From the NCBI GenBank assembly GCA_963805085.1, contig CAWDTA010000002.1:960001-1024000 (forward strand): a DNA stretch of 64,000 nucleotides, written 5' to 3'. The number at the start of each line of letters is the position of its first letter. Position 1 is the stretch's first letter. This stretch comes from an uncultured Veillonellaceae bacterium (lineage in GTDB: Bacteria; Bacillota; Negativicutes; JARBTT01). Shown in pieces: positions 18,145 through 56,600 of the stretch. A program made the position numbers and the translations under genes. The notes beneath the pieces are model-generated. The model was not told where the DNA came from. It was given only the letters and a program-made list of their open reading frames with translations, and made no database searches.

Positions 18145-19359
18145 ATGGTTGGGGAAAATAGAATAAGGAATATCGGATTTTTAAGTACGTTTCCGCCGCG
18201 TGAGTGTGGACTGGCTACATTTACGGAAGATTTGGTGCATGAAATTAGTAAAATAGCACTAATTCAGCCAAGTGTTATTGCAGTGGTGGATAAGGAAGAT
18301 TATAAAAATTCCCAGGTGAAATGTAAGCTTAACCAGCATGATCGTACGAGTTATTTAATGACGGCATTTTGGGCGAATGATAATGTCGATCTCTTGATTA
18401 TTGAGCATGAATATGGGATATTTGGTGGCGAATGTGGCGAATACATCATTGATTTAGCAAGAGCGCTGAAGATTCCCTTTATCGTCACGACCCATACTGT
18501 ATTATTAGAACCATCCGCAAAGCAGCGGACTGTTCTGCGAGATCTAGGAAGGCTAAGCACAAAAGTAGTAACCATGGCGGAAAGTTCTATTCCTATTTTG
18601 GCTGGAACGTATGGTATTGAGTCCGAAAAACTTGTATTTATACCTCATGGTGTTCCTAACCTACATGTAGAATCACGAGAAAAATTAAAAGCTGATCACG
18701 GTTTACAAGACAAGAAAGTCATTAGTAGCTTTGGTCTTATTAGTCCGGCTAAAGGCTTGGAGTATGGTATTGAAGCGGTAGCTAAAGTGGTACCAGATTA
18801 TGAAAATCTGGTTTATCTGATCCTCGGCAAGACGCATCCGTGTGTCAAAGCAAGTATGGGCGAAAAATACAGGCAGAGTTTGATGGATTTAGCAGAAAGA
18901 CTTGGGGTACAAGATAATATTCGGTTTATTGATAAGTACCTGACCAAGGAAGAAGTGATTACCTATCTTCATTTGTCCGATATATACATGACGCCGTATT
19001 TGTCTAAGGAACAGGCAGTCAGTGGTACGTTGGCATACGCTATGGGGTGTGGGCGGGTTATTGTATCAACTCCATATCGCTATGCAGAGGAGATGCTGGG
19101 CGGCGGTCGTGGAATGCTTGCTAAATTTAGAGATGCTGATTCAATGGCATCGTGTATTCGAACCGTGCTCGGAAATCCAGAACGAAAAAAAGAAATGGAA
19201 ATGAAGACATTGACCGTTGGGCGGACAATGACATGGACTACGGTTGCCGATCAATATGCTGAACTTTGTATGGATATTATCCCACCTGCTTGTCCGGTGC
19301 TTCAAAAATCTCATTCCAATCTTACGATAATGAAACGAAATGGAATGAGGGCAATATAA
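18145..19359 (+). CDS. Glycosyltransferase family 4 (mannosyltransferase-like)
   Basis: STFPPRECGLATF, HEYGIFGG, IPHGVP, GLISPAKGLE, QAVSGTLAYA, STPYRYA. Confidence 0.9.
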   Translation: MVGENRIRNIGFLSTFPPRECGLATFTEDLVHEISKIALIQPSVIAVVDKEDYKNSQVKCKLNQHDRTSYLMTAFWANDNVDLLIIEHEYGIFGGECGEYIIDLARALKIPFIVTTHTVLLEPSAKQRTVLRDLGRLSTKVVTMAESSIPILAGTYGIESEKLVFIPHGVPNLHVESREKLKADHGLQDKKVISSFGLISPAKGLEYGIEAVAKVVPDYENLVYLILGKTHPCVKASMGEKYRQSLMDLAERLGVQDNIRFIDKYLTKEEVITYLHLSDIYMTPYLSKEQAVSGTLAYAMGCGRVIVSTPYRYAEEMLGGGRGMLAKFRDADSMASCIRTVLGNPERKKEMEMKTLTVGRTMTWTTVADQYAELCMDIIPPACPVLQKSHSNLTIMKRNGMRAI

Positions 19360-20396
19360 TGACCCAATTATGTACTGAATTTAATGACGCACATATCTTT
19401 CGGATGACTGATGATACGGGGATGTTTCAACATACAAGGTACAATGTTCCTGATTTGGATAAAGGATATACAACGGATGACAATGCTAGGGCTTTAATTA
19501 TGGCGGTTATGTTCTATGAAAAAAATCGTCAGGCTAAATATCTTGCATTAGTCTATCGCTATTTGGCGTTTATCTTATATGCGCAAAATGAAGCTGGTCA
19601 TTTTCGGAATTTTATGACCTATGAGCGTAAATTTACGGAAACACAAGGGTCAGAAGAATGCCTCGGTCGTTGTCTTTGGGCTTTAGGGTATACGCTGGCT
19701 TCATCCGTGATGCCTAGTGGGGTAAAAGCTGCTTGTAATAGTGCTGTTAGTCGCGCATTGCCACAGGTTTCTTCGTTAAAGTGCCTACGGGGGCAGGCAT
19801 ATGCCTTAATAGGTCTTGGCTTTATTGATGAAACTGAGAGTGATAGCCTTATAAATAAACTTGCTGAGTTCATCGCGGTTAACTTTGAACTTTGTTCAAG
19901 GGAAAAGAACTGGCGCTGGTTTGAAAATAGTCTGACGTATGATAATGCGCTACTGCCTTGGGCGATGTTTGTGGCCTTTCGTAAAACAAGGCAAGAGCGG
20001 TTTCTCTATATAGCGCGCGAAAGTATGATGTTTCTTGATCGAGATGCCTTTCGAGATGGTTTTTTCCGACCAGTGGGCTGTGACGGGTGGTGGATACGGG
20101 GAAATGATCCCGCAGTATATGATCAGCAACCTGTAGAGGCATCCATGTCTACACTGGCTCATTTGGTCGCTTATCAGGTCACTAGTGATGAAGAGATGCT
20201 AAATTTAGCTAGGCAGAGTTTTGCTTGGTATTTGGGTAAAAACTCTTGCCATAAAAGTCTAATAGACCATGAAACGGGTGGTTGTTATGATGGGATTATG
20301 ATTGATGGATTGAATCAAAATCAAGGTGCGGAAAGCATTGTTGGTTATTGCATGGCTAGGCTGGCTTTGGATAATAAAGGTTTAGGTATTATATAA
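19359..20396 (+). CDS. Six-hairpin (alpha/alpha) glycosidase-like protein, partner of the preceding GT4
   Basis: TAATG coupling to the upstream stop; MTDDTGMFQH, GYTTDDNARAL, LTYDNA, DQQPVEA, CYDG..NQGAES. Confidence 0.8.
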   Translation: MTQLCTEFNDAHIFRMTDDTGMFQHTRYNVPDLDKGYTTDDNARALIMAVMFYEKNRQAKYLALVYRYLAFILYAQNEAGHFRNFMTYERKFTETQGSEECLGRCLWALGYTLASSVMPSGVKAACNSAVSRALPQVSSLKCLRGQAYALIGLGFIDETESDSLINKLAEFIAVNFELCSREKNWRWFENSLTYDNALLPWAMFVAFRKTRQERFLYIARESMMFLDRDAFRDGFFRPVGCDGWWIRGNDPAVYDQQPVEASMSTLAHLVAYQVTSDEEMLNLARQSFAWYLGKNSCHKSLIDHETGGCYDGIMIDGLNQNQGAESIVGYCMARLALDNKGLGII

Positions 20397-20429
20397 TTTA
20401 ATCAATATAAAAAGGAACGTGATTATCCT

Positions 20430-21800
20430 ATGAAAGTCATTATTCTCGCTGGTGGCGGAGGTAGTCGCTTATTTCCTCTCTCCCGTACATTGTTCCCCAA
20501 GCAATTTTTAAAACTCAATGGCGAAGAATCGCTGCTCGCACAGACGATTGCTCGGTTTTTGCCCATGGTTAAGCCATCTGATATGGTAGTGGTGACCAAT
20601 CAGGAATATATTCATCATGTGCAGACAGAACTAATTGCTGCCAAGGCGCAGGACGCCCATATCCTACTAGAACCAGTAGCGCGAAATACAGCACCGGCGG
20701 TTGCTTTCGCGGCAAGATATTGTCTAGAAAAATTGGGCTCGACGCCAGATGAAATCATATATGTAACGCCGTCTGACCACATTATCCGCCCTGTAGATAC
20801 ATTTATTGTAAATGTCGGGCAGGCCATAAAGCTAGCAAAGCAGGGGAAAATTGTGACTCTTGGTATACAGCCGGATCATCCGGAAACTGGTTATGGGTAT
20901 ATTCAAGCTGGCAATCCTTTTGGTGGTGGTTTTGCAGTCCAGTCCTTCCGTGAAAAGCCAGATCAAGAGACCGCAGAAGCATATTTAGCTGCTGGTAACT
21001 ACTACTGGAATTCGGGGATGTTTGCATTTACGATTCGTTGCTTTATGGGTGAATTGCAAGCGTATCAGCCAGATGTTTATGAAGTAGCTGAACGAGATTT
21101 GCTTGAGATGACGGCAAATTTTGCCCAAATGCCTAATATTTCGATTGACTACGCGATCGCTGAAAAATCGAAAGAGTTAGTGATGCTGCCGATTACGGCG
21201 GAATGGAATGACATCGGCTCATGGGATGCAATCTATGATGTGTTTGATAAGGACTCGGATGGCAATGCATTAAAAGGTGATTGTACTACGATTGAATGTT
21301 CAAATACATTAATATGGGGACATAGTCGTCTTATTGCAGGTATCGGGCTTGAAGATATTTTAGTGGTAGAGACAGATGATGTTATTGTTGTTGCTAAAAA
21401 AGGTGAGTCGCAAAAGGTCAAAGAATTAGTGGGAAAGCTAAAGGAAAAAGGTAGGATAGAGGCGGATGAGCATACGACAGTTTATCGCTCATGGGGTTTT
21501 TACAAAGTGCTAGGTTCTGGCCCTGGCTATAAGATGAAGAAGATTGTTGTTAATCCAGGAGAAGTTCTTAGCTTACAGATGCATTATCATCGTAGTGAGC
21601 ATTGGATTGTTATTGGTGGGACAGCAAAGATCATGATTGGCGATGTTGAACAAATGCTACATGAGAATGAGAGCATTTTTGTGCCGCAAACGACGAAGTA
21701 TCAACTCGGAAATCCTGGGAAATTGCCACTTCAGATTATCGAAGTCCAGAATGGTAGTTATCTGGGAGAAGATGATATTGTTCTTTTTAACAATTCATAA
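20430..21800 (+). CDS. manC: Mannose-1-phosphate guanylyltransferase with C-terminal PMI-type cupin
   Basis: ILAGGGGSRLFPLSR..PKQF, EPVARNTAPA, FREKP, WNSGMF, WNDIGSW, LSLQMHYHRSEHW. Confidence 0.93.
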   Translation: MKVIILAGGGGSRLFPLSRTLFPKQFLKLNGEESLLAQTIARFLPMVKPSDMVVVTNQEYIHHVQTELIAAKAQDAHILLEPVARNTAPAVAFAARYCLEKLGSTPDEIIYVTPSDHIIRPVDTFIVNVGQAIKLAKQGKIVTLGIQPDHPETGYGYIQAGNPFGGGFAVQSFREKPDQETAEAYLAAGNYYWNSGMFAFTIRCFMGELQAYQPDVYEVAERDLLEMTANFAQMPNISIDYAIAEKSKELVMLPITAEWNDIGSWDAIYDVFDKDSDGNALKGDCTTIECSNTLIWGHSRLIAGIGLEDILVVETDDVIVVAKKGESQKVKELVGKLKEKGRIEADEHTTVYRSWGFYKVLGSGPGYKMKKIVVNPGEVLSLQMHYHRSEHWIVIGGTAKIMIGDVEQMLHENESIFVPQTTKYQLGNPGKLPLQIIEVQNGSYLGEDDIVLFNNS

Positions 21801-25038: not shown

Positions 25039-25097
25039 GAGTAAACGAAAAAACGTGGTTGGAATTCTGCTAGAGAATTTCAACCACGTTTTTGTTT
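24946..25097 (+). repeat. About 150-bp direct repeat, copy 1 (permease 3' end plus terminator)
   Basis: Highly similar to 33503-33655; shared blocks GGCATGATTGCCTTAAC, AACTATGCAATTTCATGTTACTCGCG, GTTGACTTGTAAAAGTTATTAAGA. Confidence 0.92.
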
Positions 25098-25402: not shown

Positions 25403-28249
25403 ATGACAAGAATGCAAAACATATATCAAACTTTAAAAGCGTTATGTAGTAAAGTTAGTCTTGAGGATCTAGAACAAGGGTTTTCTGGATTTGATACGAA
25501 TCAGATCAGTCAAATAAATGGAATTATCAGAAATAACGTTAGCAAGGAATTAAACAAGCTTGTAAGAGAAAAAAAAGTTATAAAAATAAAAGGACATCCA
25601 GTTTATTTTTTTGATAAAGCAAGACTTGAGTATTTACTAGGAACAAGTATAGTTATGGGAGACACAGAAGTTTCTTCTATAGGGGAACTTATACATAGCA
25701 ATTCAAATTTCATGCCAACCGAAAAAGAAAATCAAGATATTCTTGAGCAAATTATTGGTTCTAAAATGAGTCTAGATGTTCCGATTAAACAGGCAAAGGC
25801 TGCCATCTTTTATCCACCAAGAGGACTACATACTTTACTAATTGGCCCAACTGGAAGTGGCAAGACTACATTTGCAGAGATTATGTATCAATATGCGCTT
25901 GAATCTGGAACGTTAAAGCAAGGTGCCAATTTCATCATATTTAACTGTGCAGAGTATGCAGATAATCCGCAATTAATCTTATCGCAGTTATTTGGGCACA
26001 TGAAAGGCGCTTTTACTGGAGCTAATAAAGATAATCCTGGGCTAATTGAAGAGGCAAATGGTGGGATATTATTACTAGATGAAGTACATAGGCTGTCTCC
26101 AGAGGGGCAGGAAATGCTATTTATGTTAATCGATAAAAATAAATATCGCAGAGTGGGTGAAACAAGCAATACACGAAATGCGGAGGTGCTTTTAATAGCA
26201 GCTACTACAGAAGATGTAGAGTCTGTCTTATTAAAAACATTTTTACGAAGAATTCCAATGGTGATTAAGTTGCCTTCGTTATCCGAAAGGTCTTTAAATG
26301 AACGCTATGAATTAATTAGTAGCTTTTTCTCTATCCAATCAGATATTATTAATGCACCTATCCGTGTATATAAAGATGTGTTGAAGGCATTATTATTATA
26401 TGATTGCAAGGGAAATATCGGACAGTTAAAAAGTGATATACAGCTAATTTGTGCTCGTGGATTTCTAGAATATAAAACGCAACGGAAAGTATTTATAGAA
26501 ATTGATATACCTTTAGTCCCTGAGCATGTATATAACGGACTTTTATATAGTCAGGAAAAACGTGACGAAATCTTTGAACTTCTAGAGGACAGCAGAGTGT
26601 ATTACGAATTTCCTCAAAATAAATTTAATAAAAATCTTTTTAGTGATAACTATAATGATTCAGATAAAGTATATTCTGAATTAACAGTAAAATATAATTT
26701 ATACACCAAAAGAGGGGATTCACAAGAGAGCATAAACCAAAAAATGAATCAAGTTATTGAAAAGTATTTAAAACAACTTTTAAAAAAGGTAGATATTCAT
26801 GAGAAAATATCTGAAAATGAAAAACTTTTTAAGGTGGTCAGTCCTAGAGTATATGCTGCCATTGAACGTACACTTTCTATCGCTTCTGATATGTTAAAGA
26901 AAAAAATAAGTAAAAAAGTAGTAATTGCATTGGCTATGCATATCAATGCGCTGCCTAAACGAAAAACAGAAAAAATTAGCTATACGAAAGAAAGTTTAAA
27001 CAAAATTGCAATTAATAACCCAGAAGAATATAAAGCTGCTAAAGTCATTCGAAAAGAAATTGAAAAATCTTTAGATATGGAGATCCCAGAGGAGGAAGAA
27101 GGCTTTATCGCTATGTTCCTATATGCTGTCGATTCTAAAGAAATGAATCAAAAAGTCGGTGTTATAGTCATGGCCCATGGAAGCAGTACTGCTTCAAGTA
27201 TTGCCGAAGTCTGCAATGTATTACTGAGCACAAATCACTGTAAAGCAATTGATATGGCTCTAGATGATAAAATTCAAGATGTATTAGATAAAACTGTGGA
27301 ATTAGTTAAAAAGGTAGATCAAGGGAAAGGTGTTTTACTACTAGTGGATATGGGGTCTCTCTCAGCTTTTGGAAAGATTGTTGAAGAAAGAACGGGTATT
27401 AATATTATTACAATTCAAATGGTATCTACGCCAATTGCTCTAGATGCAGTTCGAAAGAGCTTGATGCCGGGTATGACTTTAACTCAAATTACGGAAGACT
27501 TGCAAGATGTAGCCACTCCTAACATAGGAATAAGTCTTACAGGGGAGCTAGAAATGGCGAAGCAAAGTGTCAATTCAAAAATGATTGTCACTACTTGTAT
27601 GACATCAGAAGGAACAGCTGTGCAACTTGCCAACCTGATTAAAGATTCTATTCCAAGCATAATTGAGAATAATATTACTGTTCAACCGATGACAATTCAT
27701 AAAATTAAAAGTCTGACCCGTGATAAATTAGATAACATCTTTGTATTTGTAGGCAGTTTAAATCCAGAAATCATCAGTATACCCTATATTTCAACAGATG
27801 AAATTGTTATACATAATGGACTAGAACGAATCAGTAATATGATTGAAGGCAGACGCCTTGATAGATATAAAAAAAGATTGATTCCAAATTTAACTATGAA
27901 AATTATTGAGGATTCCTTAAGCTTTTTAAACCCTCAAAAAGCTTATGATGTATTGGATGAGGCGCTAAATGATATTGTAAATATACTGTACATCGAAAAA
28001 ACAGATCATCTAAAAGCAAGTTTTCTTATGCATTGCACATGTATGATAGAAAGAGTAATAAAGAAGGAAGTGTTGCCATATAACGATATTGCAATGTGCA
28101 TTGAGGAGAATATGGATATCTATCATACGTTAAAAAAATCGCTGCAGATTGTGGAAGATACCTTTAGTATGATAATTCCTGATACAGAGTTGGGATATAT
28201 CATTGATATGATTGATACAGATGAACGCACACGGAAATTAATTAAATAA
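25403..28249 (+). CDS. LevR/DgaR-type sigma54 activator (HTH, AAA+, PRD, EIIA, EIIB, PRD)
   Basis: RNNVSKELNKL HTH, GPTGSGKT, GAFTGA, LLDEVHRL, VMAHGSSTASS, CMTSEGTA, LMHCTCMIER. Confidence 0.92.
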   Translation: MTRMQNIYQTLKALCSKVSLEDLEQGFSGFDTNQISQINGIIRNNVSKELNKLVREKKVIKIKGHPVYFFDKARLEYLLGTSIVMGDTEVSSIGELIHSNSNFMPTEKENQDILEQIIGSKMSLDVPIKQAKAAIFYPPRGLHTLLIGPTGSGKTTFAEIMYQYALESGTLKQGANFIIFNCAEYADNPQLILSQLFGHMKGAFTGANKDNPGLIEEANGGILLLDEVHRLSPEGQEMLFMLIDKNKYRRVGETSNTRNAEVLLIAATTEDVESVLLKTFLRRIPMVIKLPSLSERSLNERYELISSFFSIQSDIINAPIRVYKDVLKALLLYDCKGNIGQLKSDIQLICARGFLEYKTQRKVFIEIDIPLVPEHVYNGLLYSQEKRDEIFELLEDSRVYYEFPQNKFNKNLFSDNYNDSDKVYSELTVKYNLYTKRGDSQESINQKMNQVIEKYLKQLLKKVDIHEKISENEKLFKVVSPRVYAAIERTLSIASDMLKKKISKKVVIALAMHINALPKRKTEKISYTKESLNKIAINNPEEYKAAKVIRKEIEKSLDMEIPEEEEGFIAMFLYAVDSKEMNQKVGVIVMAHGSSTASSIAEVCNVLLSTNHCKAIDMALDDKIQDVLDKTVELVKKVDQGKGVLLLVDMGSLSAFGKIVEERTGINIITIQMVSTPIALDAVRKSLMPGMTLTQITEDLQDVATPNIGISLTGELEMAKQSVNSKMIVTTCMTSEGTAVQLANLIKDSIPSIIENNITVQPMTIHKIKSLTRDKLDNIFVFVGSLNPEIISIPYISTDEIVIHNGLERISNMIEGRRLDRYKKRLIPNLTMKIIEDSLSFLNPQKAYDVLDEALNDIVNILYIEKTDHLKASFLMHCTCMIERVIKKEVLPYNDIAMCIEENMDIYHTLKKSLQIVEDTFSMIIPDTELGYIIDMIDTDERTRKLIK

Positions 28250-28352
28250 ATTATACAATAAATAAAACAATTGATAAAAAATTTGCTTTGAAAAGCTGCA
28301 TTTATCAGTTGTTTTATTATTTTTTATTAAAAATTCGCGAAGCAATATTAAG

Positions 28353-28369
28353 TTGGCATAATTATTGCA
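28353..28369 (+). promoter_or_regulatory. sigma54 (-24/-12) promoter
   Basis: TTGGCATAATTATTGCA with GG-N10-GC spacing, between the activator and the PTS genes. Confidence 0.88.
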
Positions 28370-28461
28370 TTAATATAAAGCAACGAAAAGTTTTACAAAT
28401 CTAAAGAAATAAAAAGGATAGATACTTGTGAAATTATTTGATAAAAAGGAGGTAAAGAAGG

Positions 28462-28860
28462 ATGGATGAAAAACCATGGATTTTAATATTAACACATGGA
28501 AATGCGGGAGAAGCGTTGGTTAAGAGTGCTGAAATGATTATAAGTACTTTGCAAAATGTGATGGCCTTCTCATTGTTACCGGGGATGTCTCCAGAAGAGT
28601 TTATTGAAATGGTTAAAGAAAAGTTAGATGCTTTGCCAAAAGGAGTACTGATATTAACAGATTTATTTGGTGGCACACCTTTTAATGTAGCAATGGCATT
28701 ATCAAGAAATTATGATATCAGTCTAGTTAGTGGCGTAAATATTTCAATGATCATTGAGGGCGATTTGCTGCGCAATAATTTATCAGGAAGAGAATTGGCA
28801 AAAGCTGTTCAGAAAGTTGGAAGTGAAGCTTGCTGTCTTGCAGATATGCCACAAAAATAA
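28462..28860 (+). CDS. Mannose-family PTS EIIA
   Basis: ILTHG, LTDLFGGTPFN, SGVNISM. Confidence 0.92.
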   Translation: MDEKPWILILTHGNAGEALVKSAEMIISTLQNVMAFSLLPGMSPEEFIEMVKEKLDALPKGVLILTDLFGGTPFNVAMALSRNYDISLVSGVNISMIIEGDLLRNNLSGRELAKAVQKVGSEACCLADMPQK

Positions 28861-28886
28861 ATAAGAAAAGATGGAGGAATTTTTTC

Positions 28887-29372
28887 ATGGCTGAGATTAA
28901 GTTAGTAAGAGTAGATTTTAGATTAATTCATGGTCAAGTAATCACGCGTTGGTTAAAACAGACCAATGCAAATAGAATTATAGTAATCGATAACAAGTTA
29001 TCGAAAGATCCATTTATGAGTCAAGTATATGTGCTAGCTGCTCCTCCCGGTGTAAATGTTGAAATGATATCGGTCGATGAGGCCGCGACTTCATGGGCGA
29101 AAAATGAATTAGGTAACGGCAGTGTGTTAATTCTTTTCAAAACAGTTTCCACTGCCTTGGAAGCATTGGAAAAAGGTATTCCGTTAAAACGATTACAAAT
29201 TGGAGGCCTCGGAGCAGGTCCAGGAAGAAAAGTTGTTTATAACCAAATCACATTAAACGATGGTGATGCAGAAAAACTTCAAGAAATAAGTGCCGCTGGC
29301 TCAGAAATATTTTTCCAGACAGTTCCTGAAGAAACATCAGTAAGTTTAAAAGATATTCTCAAAAAAATGTAA
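28887..29372 (+). CDS. Mannose-family PTS EIIB
   Basis: GGAGG RBS before ATG 28887; RVDFRLIHGQV. Confidence 0.92.
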   Translation: MAEIKLVRVDFRLIHGQVITRWLKQTNANRIIVIDNKLSKDPFMSQVYVLAAPPGVNVEMISVDEAATSWAKNELGNGSVLILFKTVSTALEALEKGIPLKRLQIGGLGAGPGRKVVYNQITLNDGDAEKLQEISAAGSEIFFQTVPEETSVSLKDILKKM

Positions 29373-29393
29373 GTAGGAAAGGAAGATGAAAAA

Positions 29394-30140
29394 ATGATTA
29401 TTCAAGCAGCATTGATCGGTTTATTGTATTATATGGCAACAAACCGAATTTGGTATGGGTTCTCAATGTTAATACGGCAGCCATTATCATTATCAGTATT
29501 TATTGGACTAATCTTTGGGGATATGGAAACAGCATTAATTATGGGTGGTACACTACAGATGATGTATCTTGGTGCAATTGCTCCTGGTGGAAATATTCCA
29601 ACAGATGAAGCACTAGCAGCTTGTGTGGCGATTCCTCTTGCAATTCAGGCACATGTTGGTCCGGAAATAGCAGTTGCTATTGCCGTTCCCATTGGACTAC
29701 TTGGAGTTCTGCTAGACGAGCTTAGAAGAACATTATTTACAGGCCTCGTTCATATAGCAGACAAACGTGCAGAAGAAGGAGATGCAGCAGGCATAAGGCG
29801 GCTAGCATTCATTTATCCGCTGATCTGTGCATTTCCTATCCGTTTTATCCCAGCGTTTTTAGCAAACTTATATGGTGTTGATGCAGTGCAGACTTTCATG
29901 AGTTCAGTTCCACAGTGGGTATTACAAGGACTTGGTATAGCGGGAAATATATTACCAGCATTAGGGTTTGCTCTAACGATGGTCATTATTGGGAAGAGAA
30001 ACTATATTCCCTTTTTCATTATTGGGTTCTTCTTTGTAGCATACACAGGAATCAGTATTGTGGGAGTCGCAATATTTGGATTTTGCATGGCAGCTATTTA
30101 CACTCATTTTCAACCAATTAAAGAGCAGAGGGAGGGGTAA
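29394..30140 (+). CDS. Mannose-family PTS EIIC
   Basis: GLIFGD, GGTLQMMYLG..PGG, AIAVPIGLLG, LPALGFA. Confidence 0.9.
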   Translation: MIIQAALIGLLYYMATNRIWYGFSMLIRQPLSLSVFIGLIFGDMETALIMGGTLQMMYLGAIAPGGNIPTDEALAACVAIPLAIQAHVGPEIAVAIAVPIGLLGVLLDELRRTLFTGLVHIADKRAEEGDAAGIRRLAFIYPLICAFPIRFIPAFLANLYGVDAVQTFMSSVPQWVLQGLGIAGNILPALGFALTMVIIGKRNYIPFFIIGFFFVAYTGISIVGVAIFGFCMAAIYTHFQPIKEQREG

Positions 30141-30142
30141 TA

Positions 30143-31003
30143 ATGAATCAGGAAATTGTAAAGTTAGAGCCCGAAAAAATTACCAAAACAGATATTACAA
30201 AATCGTGGATCAGATGGTTTGCTTACTCAGAAGTGTCTAACAGCTATGAACGTTTACAGGCCTTGGCCTTCTGCGGAGCTATGACAGGAATATTAGAAAA
30301 GCTATATAAAAATAAAGCGGATCTAGCTGCAGCATTGCAAAGACATTTAACGATGTACAACACGCAATGTAATTGGGGATCTGTTATAAGTGGTATTACC
30401 ATTGCGTTAGAGGAAAAAGCTGCATCAAAATCGGAAGAAGTGACTGAAGAAGATGAGGATGAAGTTAGTGAAGAAGTAATTACAGGAATTAAAACTGGTT
30501 TGATGGGACCCATTGCTGGTATTGGGGACACGATTGACTATGGTACTTTACGTCCCATATTGATGGGGATCTTCATTCCCTTTGCTCTGGCAGGTTCAGC
30601 AGTTGCCGCCTTACTTCCATTGATCATTCAGACAACATTTACAGCGATTATGGGTTACACACTCTATCATAAAGGCTACTCCGTTGGTAAAAAATCAATT
30701 ATTGATATTCTGCAGTCTGGTAAGATTCAGCAGGTTATTAGCGGTGCTGGTGTAGTAGGTATGTTTATGATGGGAGCATTGTCAGCTAATTATGTAAAAC
30801 TTACAACTCCAATGACCATTACTACATCTGTAAAAGTACTTCAAATTCAAACTTTCATTGATCAGATTGCGCCCAAATTATTACCTCTGGTTGCTGTATT
30901 AGGAGTATACCTCTACTTGATAAAAATTGGGCCAAACTATGTTAAAATTGTTGGATTTCTTATTGGAATCAGCTTACTTGGTTCAGCAATAGGTATTTTC
31001 TAA
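30143..31003 (+). CDS. Mannose-family PTS EIID
   Basis: SYERLQA, RHLTMYNT, KTGLMGPIAGIGDT, IDQIAPKLLPL. Confidence 0.92.
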   Translation: MNQEIVKLEPEKITKTDITKSWIRWFAYSEVSNSYERLQALAFCGAMTGILEKLYKNKADLAAALQRHLTMYNTQCNWGSVISGITIALEEKAASKSEEVTEEDEDEVSEEVITGIKTGLMGPIAGIGDTIDYGTLRPILMGIFIPFALAGSAVAALLPLIIQTTFTAIMGYTLYHKGYSVGKKSIIDILQSGKIQQVISGAGVVGMFMMGALSANYVKLTTPMTITTSVKVLQIQTFIDQIAPKLLPLVAVLGVYLYLIKIGPNYVKIVGFLIGISLLGSAIGIF

Positions 31004-31020
31004 AAGGAAGGAAATAAAAA

Positions 31021-31632
31021 ATGCTAAGTGAAAGCCATGACGAAGAATTAGAATACTTTTTAAATATTTCTCTTACTGAATTTGAAAAAATTCAAAAAAA
31101 AATAAACAGTAGTTTTTATGAAGATGCAGTCAACTTAATTGTTGAAGCGGAAAAAAATAAATGTCGAATTCATGTTACGGGCATAGGAAAACCCGGGCAT
31201 GTAGCAGGATACATTGCATCCCTCTTGTCTTCTACGGGTACACCAACATATACATTGCATGGGACAGAAGCAGTGCATGGCTCTGCTGGTCAGGTTTTTC
31301 CTGGTGATGTTGTTATTGCAATCTCCAATAGTGGGGAAACAGGAGAATTGAAAGCGACAATACAGGCTTTAAAGAATAATGGTGCAAAAGTCATTGCGGT
31401 AACTGGAAAGCCAGATTCTTGGCTTGCGAAAAATGGTGATGCATTCCTATATGCCGGAGTAGAAGCAGAAGGCGATGCACTAAATATGGCACCTAGAGCA
31501 TCTATCATTGCCGAAATCTTAGTTCTACAAGGATTAAGCCTAGTATTGCAAAGTGTTAAAAAGTTATCACATCAGCAATACATCAAATGGCATCCAGGCG
31601 GGTCTTTAGGACAGAGAAAGGATGAAGCATAG
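31021..31632 (+). CDS. SIS-only KdsD/GutQ-like sugar-phosphate isomerase
   Basis: TGIGKPGHVA, EAVHG, ISNSGETGE, HPGGSLG; no CBS domains. Confidence 0.85.
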   Translation: MLSESHDEELEYFLNISLTEFEKIQKKINSSFYEDAVNLIVEAEKNKCRIHVTGIGKPGHVAGYIASLLSSTGTPTYTLHGTEAVHGSAGQVFPGDVVIAISNSGETGELKATIQALKNNGAKVIAVTGKPDSWLAKNGDAFLYAGVEAEGDALNMAPRASIIAEILVLQGLSLVLQSVKKLSHQQYIKWHPGGSLGQRKDEA

Positions 31633-32565
31633 ATGGGAAAGATTTTAATTACCCCCCGATCCTTTTCGCGGTATGGAGAGCAGGCAATCGAGCTAATGGA
31701 ATCAAAAGGCTATGAAGTGACGGTAAATACTACTGGAAAACCCTATAGCTATGAAAAATTCTGCGAATTATCTTCTGACGTAGATGGAATCATTTTAGGG
31801 GTAGATACGGTTGATGAACAGATGCTTAAGGGGGCAAAGAATTTAAAAGGAATCTCACGATTTGGCGTGGGGATTGACAATATTGATGCCGAAATTGCCA
31901 ATCAATTGGGAATTGAAATAGCTCGAGCCGTTGGATCAAATTCTACTTCTGTGGCAGAACTGGCAGTTGGTTTCTTCTTCACATTGGCTCGTAATGTTGT
32001 CCAAAATGTAAATGAAGTAAAGGCTGGTAAGTGGAATAAAGCTTCTGGTGTGGAACTACGAAACAAGACTGTCGGAGTGATTGGTCTGGGAGCAATAGGT
32101 AAAGAAGTTTCAAGAATGTCCCAAGGAATTGGTATGAAGGTTATTGGTTATGATCCTTTCGTCAACAAAGAGGAAATGAAAGAAAAATACAATATCGATA
32201 TAAAGTCTTTTGAAGAAGTGTTACAGGAAAGTGACTTTGTCACACTACACATGCCTTTGACAGAAGAAAATAAGTATTTAATAAATAAAGCTACGTTGCG
32301 ATTAATGAAATCTACAGCCTATTTAATTAATACCGCAAGAGGTGATTTAGTCAATGAAGATGATTTATATGAGGCATTGATAGAAAATATTATCGCAGGA
32401 GCTGCTGCGGATGTATTCTCTAACGAGTCGCCGTCAAAAGATGAAAAGTTATTGAAGCTTGATAACTTCATATTATCTTCTCACATTGCTTCATTAACTG
32501 TAAATGCAGAACTGAATACCATTAACTTAGCTACTCATAATTTATTGGAAATATTAGAAAAATAG
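31633..32565 (+). CDS. D-isomer-specific 2-hydroxyacid dehydrogenase (PGDH-like, no ACT domain)
   Basis: RFGVGIDNID, GLGAIG, LHMPLT, INTARG, DVFSNE, SHIAS. Confidence 0.88.
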   Translation: MGKILITPRSFSRYGEQAIELMESKGYEVTVNTTGKPYSYEKFCELSSDVDGIILGVDTVDEQMLKGAKNLKGISRFGVGIDNIDAEIANQLGIEIARAVGSNSTSVAELAVGFFFTLARNVVQNVNEVKAGKWNKASGVELRNKTVGVIGLGAIGKEVSRMSQGIGMKVIGYDPFVNKEEMKEKYNIDIKSFEEVLQESDFVTLHMPLTEENKYLINKATLRLMKSTAYLINTARGDLVNEDDLYEALIENIIAGAAADVFSNESPSKDEKLLKLDNFILSSHIASLTVNAELNTINLATHNLLEILEK

Positions 32566-32586
32566 CATGAATTTTGGAGGATTGTT

Positions 32587-33465
32587 ATGGAAGTAAAGGG
32601 TATTATTACGGCAATGCTTACTCCTCTTGATGAAAATCAAGAAATTAATAGCAGGTCGACAAAACAGTTGGTTAACAAATTAATTAATTCAGGTGTAAGT
32701 GGTATTTTTATTCTTGGCACAAATGGAGAATTTCATTTACTAACTAATGATGAAAAATTGGCCTTCGCAAAGATTGTGATTGATGAAGTAAACAAGCGAG
32801 TACCAGTATATGTTGGCACTGGTGGAAATAGTACTAGGGAAGTAATTGAACTGTCAAAGAAGATGGAGGCACTTGGTGCTGATGCCTTATCGGTGATTAC
32901 TCCATATTTCTTAGTTCCTTCACAGAGTGAAGTAATTCAGCACTATAAAACAATTGCAGAATCTGTAAAAACCCCAATTGTTTTATATAATATTCCAAAG
33001 AACACTGGGATAAACTTAGATCCTGAGACTGTAAAAGAATTAGCAAAAATAAAAAATATTATAGCGATTAAAGACAGCAGTGGTAATCTTGAAAATATTG
33101 CAGAGTATATTCAAATCACGAAAGATGAAGATTTCTCTGTATTATCAGGATCAGACTCCCTGATTTTGCGTGCTTTAAAAATTGGAGCTACTGGAGCTAT
33201 TGCTGCTACTTCCAACTTAATCACAGAATTGGATGTTTCTATCTATAAAAAATTTTTAAAAGGAGATATAGCAGGGGCTGAAAAAGCTCAACAGGAAATT
33301 GAAATATTACGTACAGTTCTAAAATTGGGAACTGTTCCATCTATTTTGAAGAAGGCCGTTCAGATGTCGGGAATTCCAGTCGGACCCGCTCGATTACCAG
33401 TTGCTCAACCCAAGCAAGAAGTAGTAAAAAAAATCCAAGAAATGCTGGATTGCTATAATTTATAA
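32587..33465 (+). CDS. DHDPS/NAL-family class I aldolase, probably not DapA
   Basis: GTNGE, YNIPKNTG, Schiff-base IKDSSG; lacks the DapA Arg of YNVPxR. Confidence 0.8.
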   Translation: MEVKGIITAMLTPLDENQEINSRSTKQLVNKLINSGVSGIFILGTNGEFHLLTNDEKLAFAKIVIDEVNKRVPVYVGTGGNSTREVIELSKKMEALGADALSVITPYFLVPSQSEVIQHYKTIAESVKTPIVLYNIPKNTGINLDPETVKELAKIKNIIAIKDSSGNLENIAEYIQITKDEDFSVLSGSDSLILRALKIGATGAIAATSNLITELDVSIYKKFLKGDIAGAEKAQQEIEILRTVLKLGTVPSILKKAVQMSGIPVGPARLPVAQPKQEVVKKIQEMLDCYNL

Positions 33466-33655
33466 AGGGCAGTAAAGCACTTGGTTTGGTCAGGCGGATA
33501 AGGGCATGATTGCCTTAACTTATTTTGTTATCAACTATGCAATTTCATGTTACTCGCGCAGAGTACAGCATAAGTTGACTTGTAAAAGTTATTAAGACTA
33601 AACTAAAAACGTCGTTGGAATTCTTTTCGAGAGAATTTCGTCGGCGTTTTTGTTT
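33465..33655 (+). pseudogene. Eroded duplicate of the permease 3' end plus terminator (repeat copy 2)
   Basis: 33503-33655 matches 24946-25097; upstream patches match 24847-24900 with deletions. Confidence 0.88.
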
Positions 33656-33777: not shown

Positions 33778-34428
33778 GTGAAGTATTTGGGAATTATATT
33801 TGATCTTGATGGGACACTGCTAGATACGATTGAGGATTTAGCAAACTCAATGAATTGTGTCTTGCAAAAGCGAGGTTTTCCTCAACATACGATTGAAGAA
33901 TATAAAACTTTTGTTGGCAATGGGATGGAAAAGTTGGTGGAAAGAGCATTGCCATCCGAGAGTAGGGATAAAAAAATAGTAGAGCTGTGTTTAGCCCAGT
34001 TGCATAAAGAATATGGATGTAGGTGGGATGAGCGAACAAAACCCTATCAAGGAGTAAATGAATTGCTCGATAAACTCGCGGTTCTCGGTGTGAAGATGTC
34101 GATCCTTTCGAATAAGCCCGATCTATTTACCAAGCAAATGGTTGATAAATTTTTTGGCTTAAAACGTTTTCAGCTTGTTTTTGGTGCGAGAGAAGATGTA
34201 GCAAAAAAACCAGACCCCGTTGCCGCCTTGGAAATAGTGAAGCTGTCAAAAATTGCGGCAGAAAAATATCTTTATCTTGGTGATTCAGGGGTGGATATGA
34301 AGACCGCTAATGCAGCAGGAATATATGCGGTTGGTGCTACATGGGGGTTTAGAAAGGCTGATGAGCTCATGGAAAATGGCGGAAAAATCCTTATCGATAA
34401 CCCATTGGAGATCATTAAGCTAATTTAA
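33778..34428 (+). CDS. HAD phosphatase (phosphoglycolate phosphatase-like)
   Basis: FDLDGTLLDT, LSNKP, KKPDP, LGDSGVD, TWGFR. Confidence 0.9.
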   Translation: MKYLGIIFDLDGTLLDTIEDLANSMNCVLQKRGFPQHTIEEYKTFVGNGMEKLVERALPSESRDKKIVELCLAQLHKEYGCRWDERTKPYQGVNELLDKLAVLGVKMSILSNKPDLFTKQMVDKFFGLKRFQLVFGAREDVAKKPDPVAALEIVKLSKIAAEKYLYLGDSGVDMKTANAAGIYAVGATWGFRKADELMENGGKILIDNPLEIIKLI

Positions 34429-52533: not shown

Positions 52534-53621
52534 AGAATAGAGTGGTACAAATAGCAATCATTGTTTGTTTGATTAGTTTACTTGTGCTAAGTGGTTGTGG
52601 TAAAAAAGCAGAGGTTGCAGAGGAAGTTCCAGTGGTTAAAACAGAAAAAATCATGATAGGCAATCTAGCTGGGGCGGCGAATTATTCTGGAGAAGTGCAT
52701 GGTCGTTATGAATCGCAACTTTCTTTTCAAGTGAGTGGGAAACTGATTGCCCGGCATGTTGAACTTGGCAGTACGGTCAATGCTGGCGATGTACTGATGG
52801 AAATAGATAGCAAAGATATTGTACAAAATGTAAATATCGGGGCGGCGCAAGTTGATTCGGCGCGGGCGCAACTTAGTTTGGCAGAAGCTAATTTAAATCG
52901 ATATCGTCAGCTTTACGAACAATCAGCAATCAGTGCCGCGCAATATGAGCAATATCAAACTTCCTATGATTCCGCCTTGGCAACCTTAAAACAAGCACAG
53001 GCTCAATATACCCAAGGAAGCAATAGTTTAGGCTACAGTAAATTAGTTGCTGATAGTGCCGGGGTTATTTCCGCGATTAATGCTGAAGTCGGACAAGTTG
53101 TTTCGGCAGGGCAAAGCATGGTAACTTTAGTGAAATCAGGTGAGATGGAAGTAGAAATTAGTATTCCAGAAAATCGATTAGAGGAAATCAAAGCAAGTAA
53201 ACAAATTGCGGTGTCTTTTTGGGCGCTAAACAATGTCACGGTAACTGGTCAAGTGCGCGAAATTGCGCCAATGGCGGATAAGACTTCGCGCACTTATAAA
53301 GTTAGGATCAGTCTGATTAATCCACCAGAGCAGATTAAACTGGGGATGACGGCGAATGTAGCGATTTCTACTGCTGATCCTACGATGATGACTGCTACTA
53401 CGATTCCATTATCAGCGATCTATCAAACTGGTGATGTGCCGCAGGTTTGGGTAGTGAAAGATGGGGAAGTTAATTTACAAACGGTTACGATAGAAGCGTT
53501 TGGCGACAATAAGGTAAAGGTAATGTCGGGCTTAAATAATGGCGATATTGTCGTGGTAGCAGGCGTGCACAAATTGAGAGCGGGTCAAGAGGTGCGATTG
53601 TTAGAAGGTGAGGGCAAGTGA
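52530..53621 (+). CDS. RND periplasmic adaptor (membrane fusion protein), lipoprotein
   Basis: Lipobox LSGC; LSFQVSGK, SRTYKVR, IPLSAI, GVHKL. Confidence 0.92.
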   Translation: MKNRVVQIAIIVCLISLLVLSGCGKKAEVAEEVPVVKTEKIMIGNLAGAANYSGEVHGRYESQLSFQVSGKLIARHVELGSTVNAGDVLMEIDSKDIVQNVNIGAAQVDSARAQLSLAEANLNRYRQLYEQSAISAAQYEQYQTSYDSALATLKQAQAQYTQGSNSLGYSKLVADSAGVISAINAEVGQVVSAGQSMVTLVKSGEMEVEISIPENRLEEIKASKQIAVSFWALNNVTVTGQVREIAPMADKTSRTYKVRISLINPPEQIKLGMTANVAISTADPTMMTATTIPLSAIYQTGDVPQVWVVKDGEVNLQTVTIEAFGDNKVKVMSGLNNGDIVVVAGVHKLRAGQEVRLLEGEGK

Positions 53622-56600
53622 AAAATTTCAATCTAACAGAGATTGCTTTAAAATATAAATCCTTGGTCTATTATTTTATCATCGTAGTTTTTTTGATGGG
53701 GTGTTTTTCCTATACGAAGCTAGGCCGGATGGAGGACCCTGATTTTGTTATAAGGCAAATGGTGGTAACAGTTGCTTGGCCAGGAGCGAGTGCAAAGCAA
53801 ATTGAGGAACAGGTAACTGATAAAATTGAGAAGAAGTTACAGGATTTACCGGGGCTTAATTACCTTAAAAGTTATTCTCGTCCTGGCTCTTCGGTTATTT
53901 ATGTAAATTTGCGTGAAGATCTTAAAGCAAATACGATTCGTTCGAGCTGGGTAGAGGCTAGAAATTTAGTAAATGATATGAAAAGTGATTTGCCACAAGG
54001 CGTGGTGGGTCCGGCGTTTAATGATCATTTTGATGATGTATATGGTTCTATTTATGCACTGACAGCAGATGGCTATAGTTATGAAGAAATGCGTGTCGAA
54101 GCGGAGAAGATCCGCCGGATGCTACTTGATGTCGGTAATGTAAAAAAGGTGGAACTGGTTGGTGAACAATCAGAAAAAATTTATATTGAAATCGAAAATA
54201 GTAAATTAGCACAATTGGGGATTAATCCGAATACTATTGCTAGCATTATTTCTAAACAAAATGCAATGAATCCCGCAGGGATGGTAGATACGACTACCGA
54301 TAATGTTTATCTTCGTATTACTGGACAATTCGATAATATCGAAGCAATTCGTAGTTTGCCGATTCGCGCGAATGAACGGACCTTTCGTTTAGGTGATATC
54401 GCAACGGTTGAACGTAAATATGTAGAACCGGCTGAAGCTAAAATGTATTTCAATGGTGAACCGGCGATCGGCATTGCAGTATCAATGGAAAATGGCGGAA
54501 ATGTATTAACGTTAGGTGACGAATTAAAAAAGACAATCAGCAGTATTAGAAAGGAATTGCCCTTGGGATTAGAAATCAATCAAGTTTCTAACCAACCAGA
54601 GGTTGTAAAAGAAGCGATTGATGACTTTATTAGTACATTACGGGAAGCGATTATCATCGTGTTGATTGTTAGCTTCTTGAGTTTAGGTGTACGCATAGGT
54701 CTTGTGGTGGCGCTATGTATTCCACTGGTTATTTCAGGGGTATTTTTAGCAATGGAAATAGTCGGCATTGATTTGCACAAAGTATCGCTCGGCGCACTTA
54801 TTATTGCCTTGGGGCTATTGGTCGATGATGCAATTATTTCCGTGGAAATGATGGCGGTAAAACTCGAAGAAGGCTATGATCGATTCAAGGCGGCGTGTTA
54901 CGCCTATACTGCAACGGCGATTCCAATGTTAACAGGGACGTTGATTACTTGTGCTGGCTTTATTCCCGTCGGTTTTTCTAAAGGAACGGCGGCAGAGTTT
55001 ACCAGTAGTTTATTTCCTGTGATTGCCATTGCGCTGATCATATCTTGGGTAGTATCCGTTATGGTTACACCGTTATTTGGCTATTATTTAATTAAAGTAA
55101 AAGTTCATGATAAAACCAAAGAAAACGATGTATATAATAGCAAGTTTTATCAAGTGTTTAGAAAAATGTTAACTTGGTGTTTAAGACACCGTAAACTAGT
55201 ACTTATTGGGACGGTTCTTTGTTTCTTTGTTTCGATATTTATGATGAAATTTATTAAACAGGAATTCTTCCCGCCATCGATTCGTCCCGAAATTATCGTA
55301 GAGATGAACTTACCAGAGGGATCATCAATGAAAGCCACCGAAGCGGCGGCAAAGGAGTTTGCAGAGCAGCTAAATGGTGATGAAAATATCCAGAATTATA
55401 GCTTCTACGTAGGTACGGGTGCTCCACGGTTCGTGCTGACGACAGAACCAGTATTGCCTGCTAATAATTACGCACAATTTATTATTGTCGCCAAAGATAT
55501 TGCTACGAGGCAAAAACTTACGGATAAAATTCATAAAATTATAGAAGAGCAAATGCCAAATGTTCGTAGTAATATAAAATTGATTCAAACAGGTCCGCCA
55601 GCAGCATATCCAGTGATGCTTCGGGTTACTGGCTATGACCATGAAAAAGTTCGGCAACTTGCTTATCAAGTTGCTGATAAAATGGCGGACAATAGCAATT
55701 TAAGACAAATTAACTTTGACTGGAATGAAAAGAGTAAAGTAATGCATCTTGATTTGAATCAAGACAAACTGCGTGTACTTGGTATTGATGGACAATCGCT
55801 GGCAACAACCTTGCAAACACAATTAACAGGAGCCGCAATTGCCGAGTATTATGAACAAGATAAAACAGTAGATATTGTGTTTAGAATGCACAATGAAGAT
55901 CGTGATGATTTGTCAAAAATTAAAGATATGCCGATTGCTATTGGTGATGGTAGTTATGTACCACTTGAACAGATTGCAAAAATCAGTTATGATGCCGAAG
56001 AGGGGCTTATTTGGCGTCGTGATCTGAAACCAACTATCACTGTTCGGGCAAATGTGATTGATGGCATAACGGCAAATGATGCAACGCAGCAAGTTTATGA
56101 TGCAACAAAAGATCTTCGCGATAATCTACCAATTGGCTATACCATCAAAGCAGACGGTGCCTTGGAAAATAGCAGTAAAGCAATGAACTTTATGATTGTG
56201 CCGATTCCTGTGATGATTATCATCATTATTACATTGCTCATGTTACAATTACAACGGATGTCGTTGATGTTCTTGACCTTAATGACTGCACCACTTGGTA
56301 TTATTGGCGTTAGTTTTGGGATGCTACTGACCAATCAATCCATGGGCTTTGTAGCTGAACTTGGTATATTGGCTCTTAGTGGTATGATTATCCGTAACTC
56401 CGTTATTTTGGTCGATCAGATTGAGAAACATATTGCTGATGGTCAACCGATGTGGCAGGCGATTATCGATTCAGCGGTTCTTCGTTTTAGACCGATCATG
56501 TTAACTGCTGCTGCAGCAATTTTGGGTATGGTTCCACTGATGCGCAACACTTTTTGGGGGCCAATGGCAGTTGCCATCGCCAGCGGTTTATTCTGTGCTA

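Follow-up and report, generated by a model that had tools for sequence, protein, structure and literature searches.

The 64,000-nt stretch analysed here (the window; positions 960,001 to 1,024,000 of contig CAWDTA010000002.1, assembly GCA_963805085.1, from an uncultured Veillonellaceae bacterium) carries an operon of eight co-directional genes on the + strand (25403-33465), as identified by domain searches and direct reading. We give an even chance to the proposal that this operon serves the sigma54/LevR-controlled catabolism of Kdo (3-deoxy-D-manno-oct-2-ulosonate) or of a very close octulosonate, a substrate that is assigned here from gene context. Kdo is an eight-carbon acid sugar present in almost every lipopolysaccharide (LPS) and in plant rhamnogalacturonan II (pectin), and is therefore set free wherever Gram-negative cells or pectin decay. 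The chemical steps of the route are all predicted. A Man-family phosphotransferase system (PTS) would import the sugar acid and phosphorylate its primary hydroxyl, giving Kdo-8-phosphate (Kdo-8-P). From family chemistry and context, an aldolase would then cleave Kdo-8-P, via its Schiff-base Lys, into pyruvate and D-arabinose 5-phosphate (A5P). A SIS-domain isomerase, judged by its catalytic residues, its solved relatives and its context, would finally convert A5P into D-ribulose 5-phosphate (Ru5P), which enters the pentose phosphate pathway. As such, the operon is a variant of the PTS sugar-acid operon assembled from known families. The original prediction for this stretch had named a sigma54/LevR activator, a Man-family PTS, a KdsD-like SIS isomerase, a 2-hydroxyacid dehydrogenase and a DHDPS/NAL-family aldolase; Pfam and NCBIfam matches place each of these genes exactly where it had been proposed.

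The reading draws on the company that two of these genes keep in other genomes, namely the single-domain, KpsF-like SIS sugar-phosphate isomerase (31021-31632, + strand, 203 aa; assigned from family matches, structures, motifs and gene contexts) and the DHDPS/NAL-family class I pyruvate aldolase (32587-33465, + strand, 292 aa; PF00701, 278 bits, with PDB matches, motifs and a tree). A scan for the aldolase with one genome per species produced 295 pattern matches, 283 of them relatives, and the 80 best loci were sorted by gene-order clustering and family searches into three contexts. Type I (7 loci and the window) comprises LevR, Man-PTS, SIS, dehydrogenase and aldolase; in Megamonas (L017) an HpcH-like gene stands in place of SIS. 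Type II (48 loci) comprises a PRD/EIIA regulator, an ascorbate-family (Asc) PTS, SIS, aldolase and usually an Eda-like aldolase, and occurs in Clostridium, Clostridioides difficile-like genomes, Paenibacillus, Enterococcus, Vagococcus, Erysipelotrichaceae and Negativicutes. In some type II loci an HpcH-like aldolase is present as well; in 11 of the Clostridium-type loci, a split transketolase and a PGM-like mutase are also encoded. Type III (25 loci in Bacillaceae, Paenibacillus and two Clostridium) has neither PTS nor SIS and combines the aldolase with a PrpR-type sigma54 activator, Fe-ADH, PdxA2 and a DUF1537 kinase, for which the top model is D-threonate kinase. Type III loci further encode one of two sets: a 2-hydroxyacid dehydrogenase with an MFS carrier, or a BNR_2 protein with a TRAP or other carrier.

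Of these 80 genome loci, 54 of the 55 that are PTS-linked hold SIS and none of the 25 of type III does, from which we infer that SIS goes with a phosphorylated aldehyde product. The core of the original prediction, in which a PTS-phosphorylated ulosonate passes to a non-DapA aldolase and then to SIS, is supported by this distribution, and also by the SIS subfamily following PfkB and RbsD/FucU elsewhere, which points to A5P. In a quick maximum-likelihood tree, 25 of 27 type III aldolases fall in one clade (support 82) and the Man-type aldolases are scattered among the Asc-type ones. Because of this nesting, the PTS family seems to have been exchanged several times round a constant SIS-aldolase core. 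The GTNGEF, IKDSSG and G(S/T)DS motifs are common to the aldolases of all three locus types.

Close relatives of the window SIS are rare: of 401 genomes sampled from the phylum, 2 gave a match (E ≤ 1e-40), and of 400 sampled Clostridia, 7 did (E ≤ 1e-50). In the C. difficile genome searched, no KpsF-like match reaches E ≤ 1e-20 apart from the SIS gene of a SIS-aldolase cluster. SIS occurs outside a PTS context in five Clostridia genomes with a match (G555, G583, G662, G720 and G760). Among the eight loci of these five genomes and G401, PfkB adjoins SIS in five and RbsD/FucU in four, with ABC sugar-transporter genes nearby, and a DUF2961 gene is found in one. The gene order in one of them runs RbsD/FucU, SIS, PfkB, a divergent NAL-like aldolase, a YhcH/NanQ-like gene, BNR_2 and an ABC transporter. 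The eighth locus (L130 in G401) is a PTS-linked, Man-type cluster with Eda, dehydrogenase, SIS and aldolase. The HGS, PR[AST]S, SNSGET and HPGG motifs are kept in all eight loci; the non-PTS relatives are 56-70% identical and carry the same HGS/PR[AST]S motifs.

A metagenome scan extended this picture, with 588 SIS relatives among 595 matches, of which the best 80 loci were kept and classified by tblastn. Thirty were of the PTS/aldolase type, 28 of the PfkB-kinase type and 22 unclear, the last mostly on short contigs (seven with RbsD/FucU beside SIS and three with a sub-threshold PfkB match). None of the 80 metagenome loci held both the PTS and the kinase design. Of the 24 kinase-type loci that extend 600 nt or more downstream, 13 have RbsD/FucU after SIS; of the 19 that extend 2.2 kb or more upstream, 7 have a divergent NAL-like aldolase before PfkB. 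DUF2961 was identified in 5 of 23 kinase-type loci; either the NAL-like aldolase or DUF2961 is present in 11 of 19, and both together in none. The PTS-type transporters are of the Asc family in 18 and of the Man family in 5 of 23 metagenome loci.

Two recurrent arrangements were observed among the kinase-type loci. The first joins an NAL-like aldolase, PfkB, SIS and RbsD/FucU (L126, L131, L151, L167, L189, L195, L203, L206, L210 and L211), often accompanied by an ABC transporter and by YhcH/NanQ-like and sialidase-like (BNR_2) genes; it recurs in genomes and metagenomes and resembles a kinase-dependent pathway for a free ulosonic acid, perhaps Kdo. In the second, a DUF2961 (GH172-like) gene lies near PfkB and SIS, with ABC transporter genes (L125, L136, L137, L149, L175, L180 and L204); these loci look like D-arabinofuranoside use via A5P. 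Two papers describe DUF2961 as GH172, a family that includes exo-alpha-D-arabinofuranosidases and also alpha-D-fructofuranosidases (PMC10115798, PMC10509167).

SIS is thus found downstream of three feeds: PTS plus aldolase, aldolase plus mutarotase plus ribokinase-like kinase, and D-arabinofuranosidase-like enzyme plus kinase. A5P would be its substrate, as the only sugar phosphate that both fits all three feeds and needs a dedicated isomerase. Among natural ulosonic acids, Kdo is the one from which aldolase cleavage yields pyruvate and arabinose, so the Kdo and D-arabinofuranosidase routes would have D-arabinose in common. In the kinase design, sialidase-like and NanQ-like proteins would act first, followed by an NAL-like Kdo aldolase that yields D-arabinose; RbsD/FucU and PfkB would turn D-arabinose into A5P, and SIS would convert this to Ru5P. 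More tentatively, and with somewhat less than an even chance, the SIS-aldolase pair would represent the first gene-assigned Kdo catabolic route, built in two interchangeable designs (PTS and kinase) and including a tuning of the Man-type version to Ko. This tuning is speculation: the dehydrogenase-bearing Man-type version may be adapted to the 3-hydroxylated Ko, from which the aldolase would release hydroxypyruvate.

The tie of the SIS subfamily to D-arabinose-type loci (GH172-like, PfkB, RbsD/FucU) could also be expected if the PTS imported D-arabinose or a D-arabinoside and so yielded A5P directly, with the aldolase and the dehydrogenase engaged in an unrelated or side reaction. Yet the aldolase, which directly follows SIS, is found in 22 of the 23 PTS-type metagenome loci whose flanks are long enough and, by construction, in every genome locus; a side role would leave the SIS-aldolase linkage across Asc- and Man-type transporters unexplained. 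We hold direct D-arabinose import to be very improbable.

Turning to the isomerase itself, the window SIS scores 129.9 bits against kpsF TIGR00393 (cut-off 203.7) and covers only profile positions 2-152 of 268. It has no C-terminal CBS pair, and by CBS pair and family cut-off it falls outside KpsF/GutQ/KdsD. The best PDB match is 5uqi of Escherichia coli CFT073 (115.1 bits, 37% identity), which likewise has no CBS pair, followed by 3etn (98 bits), the KdsD SIS domain 2xhz (93 bits) and 3fxa of Listeria (77 bits). The 5uqi sequence is that of the KpsF/GutQ-family protein of the CFT073 metV island, and Mosberg et al. (2011) are said to have described this protein, called c3406, as an arabinose-5-phosphate isomerase (API). 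The active site of KdsD is formed by a Lys (K59), two His (H88 and H193) and two Glu (E111 and E152). In the 2xhz and 5uqi alignments these residues align with K57, H86, H191, E109 and E150 of the window SIS, all five of which are conserved across 53 family members. From its gene context, SIS is predicted to be a catabolic D-arabinose-5-phosphate isomerase.

The aldolase would be named DapA by annotation pipelines, since it scores 250.9 bits against NCBIfam dapA TIGR00674, above the cut-off of 206.15. Public records do name its relatives '4-hydroxy-tetrahydrodipicolinate synthase' or 'dapA4', and its top PDB matches are DHDPS enzymes. A true DapA paralog serving lysine or peptidoglycan synthesis would account for all of this. 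Its residues speak for another function. K162 (IKDSSG), Y134 (YNIP) and T45 (GTNGE) align with the corresponding residues of E. coli DapA and NanA, so that the Schiff-base Lys, catalytic Tyr and first GxxGE Thr are kept. The second Thr, Thr45 of DapA, is replaced by Asn (GTNGEF versus GTTGES), and DapA Arg138 is missing (YNIPKNTG versus YNVPSRTG), as the original prediction had pointed out. DapA Arg138 holds the carboxylate of aspartate semialdehyde, a four-carbon aldehyde-acid substrate. No Arg occurs at this position in any of the 56 PTS-linked members, all of which have Lys there or one residue before, whereas of the 27 type III members 17 have Arg, nine Lys and one Leu. This suggests, on sequence grounds, that the PTS-linked aldolases bind a different distal group from DapA, for which phosphate is the obvious candidate.

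The gene also lies in a sigma54 PTS operon and not beside dap genes. Moreover, the own genome encodes four DHDPS-family proteins, among which a canonical DapA paralog (C2:779491-780348) carries GTTGES and YNIPYRTG and matches E. coli DapA best (187 bits versus 167). A full-length KdsD (347.4 bits, above cut-off) is likewise encoded elsewhere, beside KdsA (C2:153797-155572). With KdsD/KdsA and a canonical DapA thus provided, the SIS and aldolase of the window would be extra, catabolic copies. Residues, gene context and the canonical DapA lead us to reject the lysine-biosynthesis reading of the aldolase, which we regard as scarcely credible, and the naming as DapA/dapA4 looks like a family-wide misannotation. 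The window aldolase, which is 98% identical to its closest public relative in a Pelosinus metagenome-assembled genome, is instead predicted to be a Kdo-8-phosphate aldolase.

Between SIS and the aldolase lies a D-isomer 2-hydroxyacid dehydrogenase of the short PGDH/glyoxylate-reductase type (31633-32565, + strand, 310 aa; family and PDB matches). Both of its domains are present (PF02826, 202.6 bits; PF00389, 77.4 bits), and the NAD-binding GLGAIG at 151 and the catalytic R236 and H284 place it in the D-isomer family. No NCBIfam equivalog reached its cut-off for this protein (PGDH 253 bits versus 454). The dehydrogenase goes with Man-type loci and not with the aldolase: it accompanies six of the seven Man-type genome loci and Man-type systems in all five metagenome loci with a detected dehydrogenase, and stands beside the aldolase in no Asc-type locus. 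It may reduce the keto-acid product, either pyruvate or, if the substrate has a 3-OH as in Ko, hydroxypyruvate.

The start codon of the dehydrogenase immediately follows the SIS stop codon (31632/31633), and the two genes are also neighbours in a PTS operon of E. coli CFT073. This arrangement would suit three enzymes in series, in which SIS isomerises the PTS product (for instance a phosphorylated 3-deoxy-osone or keto-acid), the dehydrogenase turns a 2-hydroxy acid into a 2-keto-3-deoxy acid and the aldolase releases, for instance, pyruvate and glyceraldehyde 3-phosphate (GAP). The subfamily Arg of PRAS could bind a carboxylate, and Man-family PTSs are known to carry Maillard-type as well as acid sugars. 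However, most SIS-aldolase loci, being of the Asc type, have no dehydrogenase, and the window dehydrogenase is only 31% identical to that of CFT073. The same Arg is present in SIS proteins that follow PfkB in ABC-transporter loci with a mutarotase, where the substrate would be a neutral sugar phosphate; the Arg was accordingly set aside as a carboxylate binder in such a series. We find the serial scheme quite unlikely.

Several observations weigh against a Kdo route. The simple form of this route leaves the dehydrogenase without a step. Neither the Eda-like aldolase found in 12 of 18 Asc-type metagenome loci with enough flank nor the HpcH-like aldolase found in 10 of 24 is needed by the model. 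Several genomes, the own genome included, carry both a Man-type and an Asc-type cluster, and the two may differ in substrate. The contrast between the aldolases at the DapA-R138 position is unclean, as Lys occupies the position itself in 19 of 48 Asc-type and 9 of 27 SIS-less members. GH172 also spans alpha-D-fructofuranosidases. One kinase-type locus has a PMI-like cupin gene, as would befit an ulosonate that yields mannose, for example KDN (2-keto-3-deoxynononate). Finally, the SIS subfamily has HGS where proven APIs have HGD and PRAS where they have P(T/S)xS, and the SIS fold is not limited to A5P, given the Listeria protein 3fxa, which we take to be a glucose-6-phosphate isomerase.

Another possibility is that the same design handles another 2-keto-3-deoxy acid (KDN, a heptulosonate or 2-keto-3-deoxygluconate, KDG) and delivers another aldose phosphate to SIS (mannose 6-phosphate, a tetrose 4-phosphate or another pentose 5-phosphate). 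The departure of SIS from proven APIs at conserved positions, a non-API member of its fold and the PMI-like gene would all fit such a substrate, as would the PGM/PMM-like mutase genes in 13 Clostridium loci, and the Eda-like aldolases in most Asc-type loci suggest intermediates like 2-keto-3-deoxy-6-phosphogluconate as well. Nevertheless, mannose 6-phosphate, glucose 6-phosphate, erythrose 4-phosphate and GAP are covered by housekeeping enzymes, so that a co-inherited isomerase would then be needless. The PfkB and RbsD/FucU partners form a ribose-type (pentofuranose) pattern rather than a hexose one, the GH172 link points to D-arabinose, and the nearest solved SIS relatives are three KpsF/KdsD-type proteins. 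Another substrate of this kind is, in our view, unlikely but worth keeping in mind. The original prediction had itself raised the SIS motifs GKPGH, HGSAG and APRAS as a possible sign of another substrate. All three are present and conserved across the 53 family members. An acidic substrate is not indicated by them, as they are subfamily-wide and the same in kinase loci.

The remaining genes of the operon provide regulation and transport for the proposed Kdo route. The first encodes a LevR/DgaR-type sigma54 enhancer-binding activator (25403-28249, + strand, 948 aa; Pfam and NCBIfam) with a Sigma54_activat (AAA+) domain, two PRD stretches and an EIIA-Man domain. It carries Walker A GPTGSGK at residue 148 and GAFTGA at residues 202-207, and its top NCBIfam match is DagR (634.8 bits, below the cut-off of 1400). 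A perfect sigma54 -24/-12 promoter, TGGCAT-N5-TTGCA (28354-28369, + strand; read directly and found by pattern search), lies 93 nt upstream of the EIIA gene, and with this promoter at the operon the AAA+ domain with GAFTGA, the two PRDs and the EIIA-Man domain identify the activator as LevR-type. The promoter pattern has two matches in the window versus 0.51 expected by chance. The second (TGGCA-N6-TTGCW, 55800-55815) lies inside a long open reading frame (ORF; 53618-56671) and is probably due to chance, at least two matches being obtained in 8 of 100 shuffles. The own genome encodes rpoN and 11 LevR-like genes. The activator, presumably steered by the PTS, which would phosphorylate its PRD and EIIA domains, would turn on the sigma54 promoter when substrate is available, and LevR and sigma54 would hold the operon silent without it. 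Such silencing would matter to a diderm host, as its own LPS synthesis runs via Kdo-8-P.

The four PTS genes follow on the + strand: EIIA of the mannose family (28462-28860; PF03610, 73.2 bits), EIIB of the mannose/sorbose family (28887-29372; PF03830, 159 bits, from ORF residue 23), EIIC (29394-30140; PF03609, 253.6 bits) and EIID (30143-31003; PF03613, 275.5 bits), the last two also of the mannose family. The ORF of EIIB is open from TTG 28830, and its start is likely ATG 28887, with GGAGG 8 nt before it. Separate EIIA, EIIB and EIIC proteins and the family-specific EIID, all well over the Pfam cut-offs, identify a mannose-family PTS, and no NCBIfam equivalog for Man, Aga or Gam reached its cut-off among the window PTS proteins.

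The operon is flanked by unrelated genes, an amino-acid ABC transporter upstream and a HAD phosphatase followed by a mannitol PTS operon downstream. A strong terminator (25049-25093; consensus scan) closes the upstream operon, and a terminator-like hairpin (33501-33516, + strand; consensus scan, weak evidence) may end the operon after the aldolase. The HAD phosphatase (33778-34428) was considered as an operon member and rejected, as a 313-nt gap and the terminator-like site precede it and the related loci L007, L011 and L017 do not retain it behind the aldolase. Further upstream, before the amino-acid ABC transporter, the window holds glycosyltransferase-like genes and a GDP-mannose pyrophosphorylase/PMI gene (18145-21800), which probably serve envelope polysaccharide synthesis.

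The own genome (4.2 Mb, 83% complete, 6% contamination; the window sits on a 2.1-Mb contig) holds all three locus types. A second SIS-aldolase cluster at C4:278983-285818 (L099) has an ascorbate-family PTS, a PRD/EIIA regulator and an Eda-like aldolase; its aldolase is 71% and its SIS 62% identical to the window copies. A SIS-less locus at C2:458000-467500 (L100) comprises a PrpR-type sigma54 activator, a DUF1537 kinase, PdxA2, an aldolase, a 2-hydroxyacid dehydrogenase, Fe-ADH and an MFS carrier. The L100 aldolase paralog is 51% identical to the window aldolase and keeps Arg138. At C2:440869-449200 (L101), a LevR-like activator, Man-family IIC and IID, an Eda-like aldolase and a 2-hydroxyacid dehydrogenase occur without SIS and without a DHDPS-family gene.

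The type III cassette, to which L100 belongs, is consistent with an aldolase that cleaves a C7 diacid, for example Dha, whose C4 fragment would reduce to D-threonate; this sequence-based reading follows from the kept Arg together with an aldehyde reductase, a D-threonate-type kinase and PdxA2. Literature searches for heptulosaric acid catabolism found no gene-assigned pathway. The sialidase-like gene of type III was also considered as a known Dha/Kdo hydrolase and set aside, as it gave only weak sialidase matches (best E 6.3e-5).

Literature searches for a gene-assigned Kdo catabolic pathway likewise found none. A 2023 paper describes E. coli as having no annotated Kdo aldolase gene (PMC10619137), and for Kdo aldolase both this paper and one from 2025 refer solely to the activity EC 4.1.2.23 (PMC10619137, PMC12199768). 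In a term search, a paper on the Clostridiales sigma54 regulon (PMC6615313) yielded no mention of the enzymes of the window operon. According to a 2018 study, an API gene is present in only some infant-gut C. difficile strains, and its authors could assign it no role (PMC5758725). If the Kdo route proves true, it would fill a long-standing gap in Kdo breakdown, give genes to the orphan activity EC 4.1.2.23 and account for 'arabinose-5-phosphate isomerase' in LPS-free Gram-positives, such as some C. difficile strains. A defined operon would offer a testable route, a sigma54-promoter reporter and enzymes to make or degrade Kdo-8-P, and would put right the widespread 'DapA/dapA4' misannotation of the aldolase.

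Compared with known systems, the operon resembles the Salmonella dga operon (DgaR, DgaABCD, DgaE, DgaF) in its LevR-type sigma54 activator, its Man-family PTS for a sugar acid and a class I pyruvate aldolase in last position. It differs in that its activator is not a DagR ortholog by the scores given above, in having no pyridoxal-phosphate (PLP) deaminase, in an aldolase of the DHDPS instead of the Eda family, and in the addition of a KpsF-like isomerase and a 2-hydroxyacid dehydrogenase.

The metV-island operon of E. coli CFT073 (L005, NC_004431.1 3249590-3254819), for which we know of no substrate, encodes a PRD antiterminator, a Glc-family PTS EIIC and a MalY/PatB-like PLP enzyme (a malX/malY-like pair), a CBS-less KpsF-like SIS and a PGDH-like protein. 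It shares with the window a CBS-less KpsF-like SIS beside a short PGDH-like dehydrogenase within a PTS operon. Unlike the window, it uses another PTS family and regulator and has a PLP enzyme in place of the aldolase, in addition to the distant dehydrogenase; its SIS carries the classical HGD and APSCS motifs where the window SIS has HGS and PRAS.

The DUF1537 kinase/PdxA2 pathways for acid sugars (D-threonate), reportedly described by Zhang et al. in 2016, are linked to the window system through the sister aldolase of the type III cassette, with the shared motifs and identity noted above. In contrast to the window operon, that cassette has no PTS and no SIS, retains Arg at the DapA-R138 position in most members and passes its aldehyde product to Fe-ADH, the kinase and PdxA2, which would fit a C7 diacid and not a phosphorylated octulosonate.

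Sialic acid catabolism (NanA, NanK, NanE, NanQ) offers a parallel, in which a DHDPS/NAL lyase splits a 3-deoxy-2-ulosonic acid into pyruvate and an aldose that is fed on as its phosphate, and the kinase-type relatives of the window system even carry NanQ-like and sialidase-like genes. In the window, however, the PTS would phosphorylate first and the lyase would act on the phosphorylated acid; an aldose-ketose isomerase would take the place of the epimerase, and the aldolase shares 30% identity with E. coli NanA. Kdo biosynthesis (KdsD, KdsA), lastly, would share with the proposed route the intermediates Ru5P, A5P and Kdo-8-P, run in reverse, and an isomerase of the KdsD family. The two differ in that cleavage would be carried out by a pyruvate aldolase with a Lys Schiff base and not by a reversal of the PEP (phosphoenolpyruvate)-dependent KdsA, and in the SIS of the window, which does without the CBS pair.

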